Shown here in pieces: positions 4,339-52,164 of a stretch of 64,000 bases of DNA. Position numbers and translations under genes: made by a program. Each line of letters opens with the position of its first letter. Position 1 is the first letter of the stretch. This stretch comes from Mycobacteriales bacterium. GTDB taxonomy: Bacteria > Actinomycetota > Actinomycetes > Mycobacteriales > CADCTP01. The notes beneath the pieces are model-generated. The model had not been told where the DNA came from and did not search any database. It saw only the letters and a program-made list of their open reading frames with translations. The stretch is from the NCBI GenBank assembly GCA_036558285.1, contig DATBFW010000145.1, positions 19,214-83,213 of the forward strand, read 5' to 3'.

Positions 4339-4427
4339 GCCCCTGGCACCTCCGGCGGGTCTCTGGTCTCGATCACGAGCGTACGCCGACGGCGCGAGCG
4401 GGCGCGGCCCGGACGGCGGCGCCGGAA

Positions 4428-5102
4428 CTACGCCTCGCGCGGGGCGACGACCGGTTCCGCGGGCGCGAAGACCGCGGAGAACAGGTAGCTGGTCGCCAGG
4501 CTGCGGTACGGCCGCCACGGCTCGGCGATCGCGAGCACCTCCGGCTCGGTGGGCAGGTGGTCGAGCCCGTACGCGGCCCGCACCGCCTTGCGCAGCGCCA
4601 GGTCGCCCGGCAGCACGACGTCCGCCCGCTGCAGCGCGACGAGCATGGCTCCCTCCACCGTCCACGGACCGATGCCCGGGACCGCGGTCAGCTCGGCCAG
4701 GAGCTCGTCGTCCGGCAGGCCGCGCAGGACGTCCGGGTCGAGCCGGCCGTCGGAGAACCGCTCGGCCAGGTCGCGCAGCGTGCCGACCTTCCGCCAGGAC
4801 AGCCCCGCCTCGCGGAGCCGGCCCGGATCCACCGCGAGCAGTTCGGCGGGCTCCGGGAGGCGACCGGCGAACAGGCCCTCGATGCGGCCGATGATCCGCC
4901 GGGTCGCGACCACGGACAGCTGCTGGCCGGTGACCTGGAACAATAGCGCGCCGTAGAGGTCCATCGGCGGCAGCTCCGCCAGCCAGGCCCGCGGGTCGAA
5001 ACCCGGCCGCTCGTCGATGAGCCGGCCGATCACCGGGTCGGCCTCGCGAAGGTGGGCCCGCGCCTTCCGCAGCCCCGCCGCCCCGTCGGAGTCCTTGGTC
5101 AC
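4428..5102 (-). CDS. DNA-3-methyladenine glycosylase II-like base-excision enzyme (HhH-GPD, AlkA family)
   Basis: LFQVTGQQLSVVATRRI, LTAVPGIGPWTVEGAML (helix-hairpin-helix GPD) and PGDLALRKAV. GTG 5102 is preceded by GGGAGGG. Confidence 0.85.
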   Translation of the reverse strand: MTKDSDGAAGLRKARAHLREADPVIGRLIDERPGFDPRAWLAELPPMDLYGALLFQVTGQQLSVVATRRIIGRIEGLFAGRLPEPAELLAVDPGRLREAGLSWRKVGTLRDLAERFSDGRLDPDVLRGLPDDELLAELTAVPGIGPWTVEGAMLVALQRADVVLPGDLALRKAVRAAYGLDHLPTEPEVLAIAEPWRPYRSLATSYLFSAVFAPAEPVVAPREA

Positions 5103-5170
5103 CGAACCCTCCCTCTGCCGGCCCGAGACACTCCGTACCCCATCGACCGCCGGCCGGTCCAGCGCGGAAT

Positions 5171-5186
5171 TTCCGGCTAGCCGGGA
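5171..5186. promoter_or_regulatory. CTAG-centred palindrome, site D (TTCCGGCTAGCCGGGA)
   Basis: 15 of 16 match to the consensus TTCCGGCTAGCCGGAA derived from seven copies in this window. Lies 69 nt upstream of the AlkA-like start (minus strand). Confidence 0.5.
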
Positions 5187-5355
5187 CCTCGGGATTCCGG
5201 TGACCGGGAAGGCGAGATGGGTGTCAGCGCTGCTGAAAACCGCCCCGAAAACGGGCCGAGTGTCGAAAGCCGAGCGAAGGCCGCCCGCGAGGCCACCGAG
5301 GCAGTGGCCACGGGACCGCGGGGTCGCACCAACTGGACCCGCGGGGTCCGGCGGG

Positions 5356-5529
5356 GCGTTGATCATCGTCTCGGTGTTCTTCGTCTTCCGGCAGATCACC
5401 GGCATCAACGTGCCGTTCTACTACGGCCCGACCCTGCTCGGCCCGATCTTCGGCGGCACCGGCAGCCTCCTCAACCAGACGGTCGCCGGCCTCGAGGTCA
5501 CCGCCATGCTGGCCGCCGTCAACGTCGTT
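5356..5529 (+). pseudogene. Fragment of an MFS sugar-porter gene
   Basis: ALIIVSVFFVFRQITGINVPFYYGPTLLGPIFGG..NQTVAGLEVTAMLAAVNVV resembles the QQ(L/F)TGIN..YY.P loop/TM7-8 region of sugar porters. There is no N- or C-terminal remainder in any frame. Confidence 0.55.
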
Positions 5530-5664
5530 AGGGCGGCGGGCGCGTCGACCGGCCCCGGCGACACCCCGACCGCGGCCGTCCGCAGCGACGCCCACTGACT
5601 GCGACGCCGGCCCCCGAGTGGCCCGGACGCACACCGACGCTGCGCCGTTCTCGGGCCGCGGCCG

Positions 5665-47278: not shown

Positions 47279-49681
47279 TCAGCGGCGCGGGTAGCCGTCG
47301 GCGGGGAGCGGGTCCGGCGCGGCGGCGTGGGCGCCGCCGTTGGCGGACCGGACGGCGGCGGTGGTGAGCGGGCCGGGCACGTGCGGCGCGGTCAGCCGGA
47401 GCCGGGTGACCGGCTCCGGCCGGCCGAAGAAGTAGCCCTGCCCGAGGTCGCAGCCGAGCCGGGTCAGGTCGGCCGCCTGCTCGGCGGTCTCGATGCCCTC
47501 CCCCACCACGAGCATGCCGAGCGTCCGGGAGATCGAGACCACCGAGCGGCGCAGCGCGGTGCCGCGGTCCGGGTCGCCGGCCGGCACCGCGAGCGTCCGG
47601 TCCAGCTTGACCACGTCGATCGGAAGGACGTGCAGGCTAGCGAGCGTTCCGTAGCCGGTACCGAAGTCGTCGAGCGCCAGCCGGATCCCCCGACTGCGCA
47701 AGGCCTGCAGGATCGGCATGGCCGCGTCGACGTCCGGCACCATGCTGGTCTCGGTGATCTCGAGCACGAGCGACGCCGCGGGCAGGTCGTGCCGGGCCAG
47801 CGCCGACTCGACCGCGGCGACCAGCCCCGGGTCGTCCAGCCGGGTCGCGGAGACGTTCACGTGCACCGCGAGCGGGATGCCACTGTTCGCCCGCAGCGCG
47901 GCCATGTCCCGGCAGGCGCGGTCGAGCACGTGGTCGTCGAGGGCGTCGATGAGCCCGGTGCGCTCGGCCGCCGCCACGAACGCCTCCGGCGGGACCGGCC
48001 CGCGCTCCCGGTCCGTCCACCGCGCCAGCGCCTCGACCGCGACGGTGCTGCGGTCGCTGAGCCGGACGATCGGCTGGTAGACCACCTCGACGTCGCCGCG
48101 GCGCAGCGCCTCGGCCAGCCGGGTCGGCAGGCCGGGGTCGTCCACCAGCGAGATCAGGCCCGGCTCGTAGCAGACCACCGCGCCACCGCCGCGCCGCTTG
48201 GCCGCATACATCGCCGCGTCGGCCCGCCGCAGCAGCGACTCGGCCGAGACCGCAGCGTCCGGCCCGTCCGGCACCACCAGCCCGATGCTCGCCCGTACGT
48301 ACCGGGCCTGGGTCTCCAGCGGGAACGGCCGGGCCAGCGCCTCGACGACCCGGGCGGCGACCACGGTCGGGTCGCGGTCGCTCTCCACCAGCACGGCGAA
48401 CTCGTCCCCGCCCAACCGGGCGACCGTGTCCGCCGCCGGGACGCAGCCGCGCAGGCGCTGCCCGACCTGCCGCAGCAGCGCGTCGCCGGCCGCGTGCCCG
48501 AGCGTGTCGTTGACGATCTTGAAGTCGTCGAGGTCGACGAACAGCAGGCCGATCGGATGCCGGTCGTCCCGGTGCAGGTCGGCGGCGTGCGCGAGCCGGT
48601 CGCCGAACAGCGTGCGGTTGGGCAGGCCGGTGAGCGGGTCGTGGAAGGCCTGGTAGGACAGCGCCTCCTGGCCGCGCTGGACCCGTTCCAGCAGGATCGT
48701 GTTCTCCCGCAGGGTCAGGAACTGGCGGGTGACGACGAGCGCGACCACCAGCAGGCCGAGGTAGATCTCCAGCCGGTCGAACATCTGGTCCATCGACGTC
48801 TGCACGACGAGCAGGACGCCGACGGCGGCCAGCGGCACGTACGGGACGAGCAGGTGCCAGCGGGTGCCCTGGCGGCGATCCGTGTCGGCGCCGTCCGGTG
48901 CGGCCGCCGCCATCGGCGCGAGCGCAGCCAGCGCGACCAGGAACGGGCCGGCGACGAAGCCGACGTCGCCGATCGGCGGCAGGTCGTGCGCGCCGGAGCT
49001 GACCAGGTAGGCGAAGACGCTGTCGGAGACCGAGATCGCGACCAGGCCGAGGACGAGCAGCAGCAGCTGCGGGCGCCGCTCCACCCGGCGCAGGGTCAGT
49101 GCCAGCAGCGCGATCGCGACCAGCACCAGGTCGGAGATCGGGTACGCCACCGCGACCGCCAGTGCCAGCCGGGTCGGCGCGCCGGCCATGACCACAGCCG
49201 ACAGCACGGTCGACCAGGTCAGCACGCTCATCGAGCCGACGATCACCAGCGCGTCGAGGACGAGCACCGACCGGGACCGGCCGGAGGTCTCGAAGGAGTC
49301 CCCGCGCCGGCGTCGCCCCGACGCCGCGATCACCAGCAGCGACGGCAGCGCGAACACCGGCAGCATCAGGTAGCCGACGTCGGCCAGCGACGGCGACGGG
49401 ATCGGGTCGAGGCTGACCACCTGCGACCAGGTCCACAGCGCCTGGCCGCCGGTCCAGCCGGCGAAGCCGGCGGCCATCAGCAGCCGCCAGCGGCGCTCCG
49501 CACCGGTCGCGCGCAGGCCGGTCACGGCGCAGGCGACGGTCGCCGCGGCGCCGCCGAGCAGCTGCCCGAGGTCGTTGACGGCGCTCGACGCCCGGTCGCT
49601 GAGCACTCCGGAGCCGGCTACCGCCACGACGCCGACGACCAGCACGGCGACGGCCACGGCGGCAGACCGGAAGCGGGTCAC
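47279..49681 (-). CDS. Membrane-bound GGDEF-EAL protein (diguanylate cyclase / c-di-GMP phosphodiesterase)
   Basis: About 8 N-terminal TM helices. RLGGDEFAVL; YQPIV..VEALARW; LEITET; ALDDFGTGY. Confidence 0.92.
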   Translation of the reverse strand: MTRFRSAAVAVAVLVVGVVAVAGSGVLSDRASSAVNDLGQLLGGAAATVACAVTGLRATGAERRWRLLMAAGFAGWTGGQALWTWSQVVSLDPIPSPSLADVGYLMLPVFALPSLLVIAASGRRRRGDSFETSGRSRSVLVLDALVIVGSMSVLTWSTVLSAVVMAGAPTRLALAVAVAYPISDLVLVAIALLALTLRRVERRPQLLLLVLGLVAISVSDSVFAYLVSSGAHDLPPIGDVGFVAGPFLVALAALAPMAAAAPDGADTDRRQGTRWHLLVPYVPLAAVGVLLVVQTSMDQMFDRLEIYLGLLVVALVVTRQFLTLRENTILLERVQRGQEALSYQAFHDPLTGLPNRTLFGDRLAHAADLHRDDRHPIGLLFVDLDDFKIVNDTLGHAAGDALLRQVGQRLRGCVPAADTVARLGGDEFAVLVESDRDPTVVAARVVEALARPFPLETQARYVRASIGLVVPDGPDAAVSAESLLRRADAAMYAAKRRGGGAVVCYEPGLISLVDDPGLPTRLAEALRRGDVEVVYQPIVRLSDRSTVAVEALARWTDRERGPVPPEAFVAAAERTGLIDALDDHVLDRACRDMAALRANSGIPLAVHVNVSATRLDDPGLVAAVESALARHDLPAASLVLEITETSMVPDVDAAMPILQALRSRGIRLALDDFGTGYGTLASLHVLPIDVVKLDRTLAVPAGDPDRGTALRRSVVSISRTLGMLVVGEGIETAEQAADLTRLGCDLGQGYFFGRPEPVTRLRLTAPHVPGPLTTAAVRSANGGAHAAAPDPLPADGYPRR

Positions 49682-49767
49682 CGGGCCTCCTCGACGCCGA
49701 CCGTCCTCGGAGCACTACCCGCGAGGGGCGGCAGTCATGGTACTGGAACACCGGTGCTGTCGGGGGC

Positions 49768-49795
49768 GTCCCGCTCTGGCGCCTCGGAGCGGGAC
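49768..49795 (-). terminator. Hairpin GTCCCGCTC-(10 nt)-GAGCGGGAC downstream of the Cys-rich micro-ORF
   Basis: A perfect 9-bp GC-rich stem, seen directly, 21 nt after the micro-ORF stop on the minus strand. No clear U-tract, as is common in high-GC actinomycetes. Confidence 0.55.
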
Positions 49796-49816
49796 GGACG
49801 TGCTCAACCCTGCGAC

Positions 49817-49882
49817 TCAGCCGCAGCAGCAGCCGCTGCCGCAGTCACAGCCATGCTCCTCGCAGCACGGGCAGCATGCCAT
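49817..49882 (-). CDS. 21-codon cysteine-rich micro-ORF MACCPCCEEHGCDCGSGCCCG (candidate miniature metallothionein / metal-buffering peptide)
   Basis: Absent from the ORF track (too short). AGGAGG lies 10 nt upstream of the ATG. 9 Cys + 1 His in 21 residues. 18 of 21 codons end in G/C. The MerR-type metal regulator gene ends 40 nt upstream on the same strand. A hairpin follows. Confidence 0.55.
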   Translation of the reverse strand: MACCPCCEEHGCDCGSGCCCG

Positions 49883-49922
49883 CGGTCGGTCACCTCCTCT
49901 CGACGGTGCCGGACTCCGCCCG

Positions 49923-50384
49923 TCAGGGCACGACGGGCGGACACCAGGTGCCCGGTTCCGGATCCGGGCAGGCCGGGCCGGGCATGTGCGCGAGCATGCC
50001 GACCAGGTCCTCGCGCAGCCGGGACAGGCGGCGCATCTCGCTGTCGATCTCGTCCAGGTGCCGGCGCAGCAGCAGCTCGGCCGGCTCGCACGGGCAGACC
50101 CCGGTGTCCCGCACCGCCAGCAGGTCGCGGATCTCGGCCAACCGGAGACCGAGCCGCTGGGCCCCGCGGATGAACTGGAGCCGGTCGACCATGGCCGACG
50201 GGTACCGGCGGTGCGCGCCGCTGGTGCGCGGCGGCTCGGGCAGCAGCCCGACCCGCTCGTAGTAGCGGATCGTGTCGATCGGCACGTCGACCGCGCGGGC
50301 GATCTGCGCCGTCGACAGCCCTGGTTCGAACTCGACGCTCGTCACGTCCTCGACGGTAGAACCTGGACCGCGGTCCAGGGTCAA
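49923..50384 (-). CDS. MerR-family (heavy-metal-responsive type) transcriptional regulator
   Basis: HTH LSTAQIARAVDVPIDTIRYYERVGLL..SGAHRRY. Cys pairs at ..DTGVCPCEP.. and ..GPACPDPEPGTWCPP at positions typical of metal-binding MerR proteins. The start may be GTG 50345 rather than TTG 50384. Confidence 0.88.
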   Translation of the reverse strand: MTLDRGPGSTVEDVTSVEFEPGLSTAQIARAVDVPIDTIRYYERVGLLPEPPRTSGAHRRYPSAMVDRLQFIRGAQRLGLRLAEIRDLLAVRDTGVCPCEPAELLLRRHLDEIDSEMRRLSRLREDLVGMLAHMPGPACPDPEPGTWCPPVVP

Positions 50385-50400
50385 GCGCTCGCCGCGAAGA

Positions 50401-52164
<1,764 letters not shown>

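Follow-up and report, generated by a model that had tools for sequence, protein, structure and literature searches.

We examined a 64,000-nucleotide stretch of DNA from a Mycobacteriales bacterium (GenBank assembly GCA_036558285.1, contig DATBFW010000145.1, positions 19,214 to 83,213 of the forward strand), referred to here as the window, in which the minus strand carries a gene for a MerR-family regulator followed by a very short, cysteine-rich open reading frame (the micro-ORF). The features of this module are listed below in window coordinates; locus counts refer to the comparative set described further on.

50379..50384, minus strand: -35 hexamer TTGACC, with TTGAnn at the equivalent position in 66 of 69 loci.
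50363..50378, no strand assigned: operator, the perfect dyad CTGGACCGCGGTCCAG, inside the 20-nt spacer at 50359..50378.
50353..50358, minus strand: -10 hexamer TACCGT (TAnnnT type), followed by 7 nt to the GTG at 50345.
49923..50345, minus strand: merR-family gene with a GTG start, 140 residues, identified by Pfam, NCBIfam, a structure match and an independent gene call.
Within 49923..50345, minus strand: MerR signatures RDTGVCPCEPAE (Cys84, Cys86) and CPDPEPGTWCPP (Cys126, Cys135).
49893..49898, minus strand: Shine-Dalgarno sequence AGGAGG, 10 nt 5' of the micro-ORF ATG.
49817..49882, minus strand: micro-ORF, 21 codons plus TGA, translated as MACCPCCEEHGCDCGSGCCCG, with nine Cys.
49767..49796, minus strand: stem-loop with a 10-bp stem in which CGTCCCGCTC pairs with GAGCGGGACG (49796..49787 with 49776..49767).
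49777..49786, minus strand: hairpin loop CGAGGCGCCA, 10 nt, which holds the self-complementary hexamer GGCGCC.

The micro-ORF starts 40 nt past the merR stop at 49923, and reading the minus strand codon by codon (ATG GCA TGC TGC CCG TGC TGC GAG GAG CAT GGC TGT GAC TGC GGC AGC GGC TGC TGC TGC GGC TGA) confirmed the arrangement given in an initial annotation of this DNA, namely AGGAGG, a 10-nt spacer and an ATG opening the peptide MACCPCCEEHGCDCGSGCCCG, together with its count of 18 of the 21 sense codons ending in G or C (G+C content at third codon positions, stop included, 0.82). With nine Cys in 21 residues (43% Cys), the peptide has the size and Cys content of an operationally defined metallothionein, and it shows the highest Cys density of any 21-residue window in all six frames of the 64 kb (74.6% GC). 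Tandem Repeats Finder reads the 3' half of the micro-ORF as a loose 6-nt repeat, and other Cys-rich off-frame stretches are present in the window; because of these two features, a single sequence is unable to settle whether the ORF is a gene or a product of chance.

Using the MerR protein to scan one genome per species, we collected the 80 best homologue loci, nearly all actinobacterial, and searched both strands of each entire 8-kb locus with a filter for Cys-rich ORFs. Directly 3' of merR, 68 of the 80 have such an ORF on the same strand; counts over 69 ORFs or loci combine these 68 with the window. According to their record titles, the carriers belong to the Pseudonocardiales, Streptosporangiales, Micromonosporales, Geodermatophilales, Glycomycetales, Catenulisporales, Jiangellales, Propionibacteriales, Micrococcales and Mycobacteriales, with one Streptomyces and members of the Acidimicrobiia, and the same arrangement of merR and Cys-rich ORF occurs on the Rhodococcus plasmid pGA1. 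Across the approximately 1.25 Mb of six-frame space in the loci, about 10 other ORFs passed the filter, and these off-site ORFs are rich in Arg, Ser and Trp, the signature of a wrong frame in high-GC DNA. Most of the 12 loci without the ORF are accounted for by contig ends (L057, L072), a frameshift (L026), distant homology and non-actinobacterial origin (L077-L080) or membership of a sister MerR clade described below.

Two of the collected loci carry a broken or possibly related form of the ORF. At L026 (~4440-4590), where promoter, MerR and class-A hairpin are intact, a frameshift of one base interrupts the micro-ORF (…CSCCDDLTCDGSCCE…); the locus comes from a long-read metagenome bin, and the two explanations are a sequencing error and recent pseudogene formation. 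At L069 (~2190-2260), a more distant MerR homologue, a Shine-Dalgarno-like stretch coding for EEV is followed by a Pro/Cys-rich frame, VDPEPICPPGPYCPDCPPAG, with three Cys, which may be a divergent member below the Cys threshold.

The ORFs share their translation signals. GGAGG, AGGAGG or AGGAG stands 5-11 nt 5' of the start in 66 of 69 ORFs, at 7-9 nt in 58 of them, and the start codon is ATG in 61 and GTG in eight. In about 38 loci the ORF start precedes the calculated merR stop, and 27 of these overlaps measure 1-20 nt, mostly -1, -4 or -8, as would be expected for translational coupling. The encoded peptides are 11-31 residues long (median 20), contain 4-11 Cys each (median 35%) and have a median net charge of -4. 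Their pooled composition is 36% C, 16% D, 11% G, 6% E, 6% T, 6% P and 5% S; only 14 aromatic residues and three His occur among the 1346 pooled residues, and Lys and Arg are also nearly absent. The motifs by which metallothioneins are recognized run through the family, with CC in 61 of 69 peptides, CxC in 59 and CxxC in 27. CC closes the sequence in 47 of 69, and in 65 of 69 the last residue is Cys or stands one place behind a Cys. Only Cys forms near-invariant columns in the alignment.

Comparison of close relatives indicates that selection acts on the peptide. The window and L001 encode identical peptides with two synonymous and no non-synonymous changes between their micro-ORFs, and their nucleotide identity is 97% in the micro-ORF, 80% in the spacer between merR and the ORF, and 100% in the 3' hairpin. 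L023 and L025 likewise encode identical peptides with two synonymous changes, and the 60 nt downstream do not align. The regulators of loci L003-L062 recurrently end in K/R/G-E-V because the ribosome-binding site (RBS) of the peptide (AAGGAGGTG) is embedded in the last merR codons, so that the translation signal shapes the sequence of the MerR protein itself. An intact Cys-rich ORF syntenic with MerR in related genomes was the test that the initial annotation had proposed, and with 68 of 80 loci showing such an ORF with its RBS, we regard it as near-certain from these comparisons that the micro-ORF is a real, translated, MerR-linked gene.

In four loci the regulator and the peptide are fused in frame with no stop between them (L007, ~2480-2536; L030, ~4424-4498; L039, ~4400-4444; L074, ~4406-4480). 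The fused Cys-rich segment sits directly after the C-terminal metal-binding loop of MerR, and the internal RBS and ATG are retained. These four independent fusions suggest that the peptide can work beside the sensing site; all four come from metagenome-assembled genomes, in which assembly errors are possible.

The window regulator has the N-terminal helix-turn-helix and the dimerisation/DNA-binding domain of the MerR family, matching PF00376 (MerR) at 2.5e-13, PF13411 (MerR_1) at 4.6e-16 and PF09278 (MerR-DNA-bind) at 3.6e-18. Against NCBIfam it scored 97.0 bits with the MerR model (cut-off 150.85), 83.4 with CadR-PbrR (151.45), 69.1 with ZntR (143) and 66.2 with CueR (147.4), and SoxR and NmlR gave weak matches of 46-41 bits. 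As it falls below every NCBIfam equivalog cut-off for MerR (Hg), CadR/PbrR, ZntR and CueR, we consider it a distinct MerR subfamily with a Pro-rich CPDPxPGTWCPP loop. Its nearest solved structures are CadR (6jgf, 9e-21), Hg-MerR and PbrR. Cys86 aligns with Cys77 of CadR, the position-79 equivalent that marks a divalent-ion sensor, and the C-terminal loop reads Cys126-x8-Cys135, so the regulator has the dimerisation-helix Cys and the two loop Cys that serve as ligands in the metal-responsive branch. RDTGxCPCEPAE and CPDPxPGTWCPP, with their four Cys, are common to the MerR homologues that bear a micro-ORF, in line with the earlier proposal that the two Cys pairs occupy metal-ligand positions. 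A Cys at this place in the dimerisation helix reportedly marks the divalent-ion sensors among MerR proteins, with Ser in the Cu(I) sensors, and the Cys-x8-Cys spacing of the loop is shared with Hg-MerR, PbrR and ZntR. These features support the assignment of the regulator to the divalent-metal-sensing branch of the family. The initial annotation had placed the merR start at a TTG at 50384, which was an error: this TTG forms the first bases of the -35 hexamer, and the real start is the GTG at 50345. An independent gene call on a public contig begins at the same GTG and gives the same 140 residues, with no call for the micro-ORF.

The promoter was read directly from the sequence and then confirmed by conservation among the 69 loci. 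The pattern of TTGAnn, a 20-nt spacer with a dyad, and TAnnnT recurs in 66 of 69 loci, the window included; all 66 matched loci have a spacer of precisely 20 nt, and in every one of them the merR start codon lies 6-8 nt 3' of the -10 hexamer. Across the family the operator follows the consensus YTGGAS-N4-STCCAR, in which the TCC of the second half-site (spacer positions 12-14) is invariant, and there is one exact match in the whole 64-kb window and one operator per homologous locus. A 19-20 bp spacer with a dyad between -35 and -10 is the promoter form of the MerR branch, and by sequence the combination of an over-long spacer and a dyad within it matches the design by which MerR proteins activate transcription. 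The operator CTGGAGT-N-ACTCCAG resembles that of the zntA promoter. Because the merR start codon follows the -10 hexamer by only 6-8 nt, the merR-peptide mRNA is probably leaderless or near-leaderless; leaderless mRNA is common in actinobacteria, and its frequency in mycobacteria has been reported (bioRxiv 10.1101/834739). A promoter and terminator consensus scan picked up neither the merR promoter nor the 3' hairpin, since the 20-nt spacer and the tail-less hairpin fall outside the rules of the scan.

The 3' hairpin had been described as a terminator with a 9-bp stem. The hairpin itself holds, with a stem of 10 bp, but no U-tract or T-run follows it in the window, and in this respect and in having been missed by the scan it departs from a canonical intrinsic terminator; it may act as a terminator of the tail-less kind found in actinobacteria. 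Compared with shuffled sequences, the hairpin has a folding energy that is unremarkable for its GC content (z = -0.15), so that its significance derives from conservation and not from stability; an Rfam search of 49650..50450 at E up to 10 returned only noise. In about half of the loci, from several orders, a stem-loop lies 6-35 nt past the micro-ORF stop with a variable stem and a conserved apex, which is either C[G/A/T]AGGCGCC[A/C] or a 7-nt loop composed of A or T plus one of the hexamers GGCGCC, GCGCGC or GGGCCC. When searched for with a loose structural pattern, such hairpins numbered 32 in the 8.3 kb immediately 3' of the micro-ORFs, where ~0.6 would be expected, against 89 in the remaining 1.25 Mb.

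We assessed covariation in a gap-free class-A subset of 15 sequences. Compensatory changes occur in 11 of 13 stem pairs while the loop is invariant, and the covariation score of 0.46 compares with 0.20 for shuffles (0 of 500 reach 0.46) and at most 0.17 for slid controls. A covariance model trained on these 15 sequences scored 40-54 bits only at the post-micro-ORF position and strand across 718 kb, the untrained L026 included; the best off-target score was 21.8 bits, and the opposite strand of the same sites gave 12-28 bits. These data indicate that the hairpin is an element specific to the module and to its strand, and probably the terminator or 3'-end structure of a short operon mRNA. What had been called a terminator thus proves more specific than that label, with a covarying stem and an invariant loop, and loop-loop pairing or recognition by a protein are possible roles of the conserved palindromic loop.

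We then considered the genes around the module by clustering all high-GC3 ORFs of 81 loci (the 80 homologue loci plus the window). No gene family besides MerR is present in more than 12 of the 81 loci, and no maturase, exporter, transporter, mer or cysteine-metabolism gene is conserved among them. The next downstream gene lies on the opposite strand in 25 of 67 loci. In the window, the module is preceded by a gene for a GAF-GAF histidine kinase and followed, 136 nt downstream of the micro-ORF, by a same-strand gene for a membrane GGDEF-EAL protein; neither the kinase nor the GGDEF-EAL protein is conserved in the other loci. The histidine-kinase gene (minus strand) contains a near-perfect hexanucleotide repeat, (CGGTGT)x8.8, at 51201..51253, which encodes TDTDTDTDTDTGTGTGTGPGP as part of the second GAF region; it may represent a coding microsatellite of variable length.

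A complete copy of the module, with promoter, MerR, AAGGAGGTG, the peptide MHDCCEDPMCPPELCGCGC and the hairpin, occurs at 4960-5530 of pGA1, a conjugative plasmid of Rhodococcus sp. GA1 (L083). It is flanked by integrase/recombinase genes and an IS1380 transposase, a location that suggests a mobile cassette. For the RefSeq record of this plasmid, the peptide carries no annotation by the Prokaryotic Genome Annotation Pipeline (PGAP) or in the PLSDB gene table.

A sister MerR clade, comprising Mycobacterium abscessus plasmid pGD22-1 (L081, 2860-5423), Streptomyces plasmid pFRL4 (L082, 2817-5408), L057, L061 and L063, has lost the last loop Cys of the regulator (W-R or W-K) and is devoid of the micro-ORF. 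The operator is the same but stands in the opposite orientation in pGD22-1, pFRL4 and L057, and in the two plasmids the reversed operator fronts an annotated divergent P1B heavy-metal ATPase, which among subfamily models scores best with that of the Cd family (465 bits; cut-off, 313). Since this operator serves a P1B ATPase in the sister clade, the broader clade of regulators is linked with the handling of heavy metals, and the comparison indicates that peptide and ATPase are alternative outputs of the same MerR switch. The sister clade also has a second operator copy, located where the ATPase gene ends or slightly 3' of that point; it precedes a gene for a hypothetical protein that is membrane-anchored, contains His and is not Cys-rich.

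Database searches gave no known relatives of the peptide. None of 10 family peptides was present on exact look-up in a collection of 15 billion proteins, and a profile search of a 5.8-billion cluster database with the first row extended to 42 residues returned no candidate at E <=10. The window peptide matched nothing in Pfam or NCBIfam, and among 30 members searched against both at E up to 10 there was no match to a metallothionein family (PF02069 included), the only hit being Keratin_B2_2 in two members (E = 0.015). Nor did we find the module described in open-access papers or bioRxiv; a report in a subscription journal is possible. Judged by sequence, then, this is a new and unannotated family of metallothionein-like micro-peptides with a dedicated MerR subfamily. 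Two statements of the initial annotation, that annotation misses the micro-ORF and that the peptide is shorter than described bacterial metallothioneins, hold because the 21-residue peptide matches no curated family and is annotated nowhere, the independent gene call omitting it as well.

We consider it probable that the micro-ORF and merR form a self-contained metal-response operon whose peptide buffers metal in the manner of a metallothionein, and the candidate ultra-short metallothionein of the initial annotation is retained as the leading hypothesis, given the conserved ORF, the metal-sensor partner and the Cys motifs; its activation by metal, the identity of the metal, binding by the peptide and the feedback are what we infer. 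In the mechanism that we propose, the MerR-family sensor would bind to the dyad that lies within the over-long, 20-bp spacer of the merR promoter, and its four conserved Cys, two in the Cys-x-Cys that opens the dimerisation helix and two in the C-terminal Cys-x8-Cys loop, would take up a thiophilic divalent metal. Zn(II), Cd(II) or Pb(II) would be the most likely ions, since the operator is ZntR-like, the nearest structure is CadR and the ATPase of the sister clade belongs to the Cd family; Hg(II) would be possible in view of the best hidden Markov model match (MerR), the Cys-x8-Cys spacing and the vicinal CC pairs. The metal-loaded regulator would remodel the promoter and switch on the leaderless merR-peptide transcript, from which the second cistron, with its near-consensus RBS and frequent coupling to merR, would yield an acidic peptide of 11-31 residues (21 here) and ~36% Cys, in excess over MerR owing to the strong RBS. 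The peptide would then chelate the metal in thiolate clusters as a minimal metallothionein or ribosomal analogue of a phytochelatin. Nine Cys would fit an M(II)3Cys9 cluster, like that of the metallothionein beta-domain, and those members that have 4-5 Cys may take up a single ion or come together around the metal. As free metal drops, the sensor would reset and close a negative feedback loop, and the conserved hairpin would end, and probably stabilise, the short mRNA.

Several observations weigh against this proposal. The peptide lies outside every curated metallothionein family, and some members, of 11-16 residues, offer only 4-5 Cys, a small number for a polynuclear cluster if the peptides do not oligomerise around the metal. 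Metal transporters are not adjacent in most loci, and a heavy-metal ATPase family occurs in seven, mostly without the micro-ORF. The Cys-x8-Cys spacing and the frequent CC pairs would suit Hg(II) too, and the four in-frame fusions of MerR and peptide fit a sensor-associated role as well as they fit bulk buffering.

That last point leads to the possibility that the peptide is an accessory of the sensor and not a bulk chelator: as a C-terminal MerR tail made in detachable form, it would capture metal or pass it on at the sensing site and so set the threshold or speed the reset. Ligand-rich C-terminal tails may act in this way in some sensors of the family; E. coli CueR terminates in CCHH, and the tail of CadR is rich in His. 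The fusions in L007, L030, L039 and L074 tether the Cys-rich segment after the metal-binding loop, many ORFs overlap or closely abut the merR stop and would be synthesized in a coupled manner, the C-D/E-P motif of the peptides resembles the sensor loop CPDPxPG, and the regulon, with one operator per locus, appears limited to its own operon. However, with a near-consensus RBS on the second cistron and a leaderless merR ahead of it, peptide would be expected to outnumber regulator greatly, as suits a buffer better than a 1:1 partner, and the wide variation among peptides (11-31 residues, 4-11 Cys) is unexpected for a specific protein-protein interface; the fusions, for their part, are confined to metagenome-assembled genomes and keep the internal RBS and ATG. 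We rate an accessory role as the main rival reading, though an unlikely one. A further reading, in which the peptide supplies sacrificial thiols against stress of a non-cationic kind (arsenite or antimonite, electrophiles, oxidants), is improbable. Its thiol density and acidity would also allow it to bind As(III)/Sb(III) or quench electrophiles, and some MerR-family members sense redox or electrophile stress, with weak matches of the regulator to the NmlR and SoxR models, but the regulator matches the MerR, CadR and ZntR models at 97-62 bits against 46-41 bits for SoxR and NmlR, its metal-ligand Cys are conserved, and the sister clade uses the shared operator to govern a P1B heavy-metal ATPase.

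The initial annotation had also raised a ribosomally synthesized and post-translationally modified peptide (RiPP), that is, a precursor with a Cys-rich core modified by enzymes encoded elsewhere. A short, Cys-rich and ribosomally encoded product is what such a precursor would be, but many members have only 11-16 residues, are Cys-rich from the outset and lack a leader, and across the 81 loci no family of maturases, proteases or exporters recurs beside the module, whose only conserved partner is a metal sensor. The leader-core organization and the co-localised modifying enzyme of RiPP loci are absent. This alternative is accordingly disfavoured, and we hold it to be very improbable. Cysteine-responsive attenuation of the downstream gene (here GGDEF-EAL) by ribosome pausing at the Cys codons is a role that polycysteine short ORFs fill in mycobacteria (bioRxiv 10.1101/834739), and a hairpin follows the ORF, with a same-strand gene downstream in the window. 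Known attenuators of this type are leaderless first cistrons, whereas the micro-ORF is the last cistron after a regulator and has a strong RBS, and the genes downstream are unconserved and often on the opposite strand; such a function is extremely improbable. The reading of the micro-ORF as a chance ORF in GC-rich, GCAGCAGC-like low-complexity DNA drew on the loose repeat in its 3' half and the off-frame Cys-rich stretches elsewhere in the window, and for one sequence the worry was fair. It is removed by the comparative data: 68 of 80 syntenic loci keep the RBS, start, Cys frame and stop position despite unrelated nucleotide sequences, and the divergence between close relatives is synonymous only, so that the chance alternative is excluded by conservation and effectively refuted.

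Compared with known systems, the proposed metal-buffering peptide is closest in mode of action to the bacterial metallothioneins SmtA/BmtA (PF02069) and MymT, small Cys-rich proteins of the cytosol that are induced by metal via a dedicated sensor and buffer it through thiolates. SmtA/BmtA and MymT have ~53-56 residues, whereas the peptides here have 11-31, are strongly acidic, essentially lack His and bear no sequence relationship to them. Control of SmtA and MymT falls to repressors (ArsR/SmtB or CsoR/RicR type), in contrast to a micro-ORF co-transcribed with a MerR-type activator. To our knowledge, the smallest gene-encoded metallothioneins are the fungal Cu metallothioneins of Neurospora and Agaricus, with 25-26 residues. 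These are alike in size and in their CxC-rich, Gly/Ser-rich composition, but they are eukaryotic, bind Cu(I) and are regulated otherwise, and many members of the present family are shorter (11-16 residues). Cu(I) is also less likely for this module, given that its sensor has the Cys diagnostic of divalent-ion recognition in MerR proteins. An alternation of acidic residues and Cys, seen in the family in CECECDCDCDCC, DCECDCECG and CDPDCDDSCDCDC, is likewise found in phytochelatins and synthetic alpha-linked (Glu-Cys)n peptides, which bind Cd, Zn, Pb and As via thiolates. Natural phytochelatins are made enzymatically from glutathione with gamma-linkages, whereas the present peptides are ribosomal. 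Actinobacteria have mycothiol instead of glutathione, and we know of no phytochelatins made by them.

The regulatory wiring has likenesses and differences of its own. Classical MerR promoters (merT, zntA, copA) have an over-long spacer with a dyad, as here, and in Gram-positive mer operons with merR in first position, merR is transcribed from the promoter that it regulates, also as here; unlike the classical systems, the module has a probably leaderless mRNA, and its sole cargo is a micro-peptide, with no transporter or reductase. The nearest regulatory analogue that we found is in Pseudomonas aeruginosa, where CadR, a MerR-family Zn/Cd sensor, activates the small Cys-rich protein Zrd, for which metal sequestration has been proposed (PMC12301328). 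Zrd is a zinc-ribbon protein with two mononuclear Cys4 sites and a member of the CadR regulon, not a co-cistron (PMC12301328), whereas the micro-ORF forms a second cistron behind its sensor gene, and its peptide lacks a predicted fold. The mycobacterial polycysteine short ORFs are likewise unannotated, Cys-rich micro-ORFs of Actinomycetota, but these are leaderless first cistrons upstream of cysteine-metabolism genes and act as ribosome-stalling attenuators (bioRxiv 10.1101/834739), in contrast to a micro-ORF that is the last cistron, RBS-led and linked to a metal sensor.

If the proposed buffering role is true, these peptides would add a new and very small class to the short list of bacterial metallothionein types. 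Being shorter than the length limits of annotation pipelines, a gene conserved across the phylum has been invisible to them. We put forward, as a view just short of probable, that Actinomycetota carry a widespread, unannotated family of metallothioneins that would be the smallest gene-encoded ones known, down to 11 residues, and in effect ribosomal counterparts of phytochelatins, in MerR-wired and sometimes plasmid-borne cassettes, with a possible role as a sensor tail and a functional hairpin loop. The conserved 3' hairpin and the MerR-peptide fusions offer leads on how MerR switches are tuned, and the peptides are short enough for synthesis, which makes their affinity and stoichiometry directly accessible. 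The cassette, which unites sensor, operator and chelator in ~650 bp from promoter to hairpin, would also be an attractive part for biosensors or bioremediation. For the organisms themselves, a ribosomal Cys/Asp peptide under a dedicated sensor would explain how actinobacteria buffer thiophilic metals.

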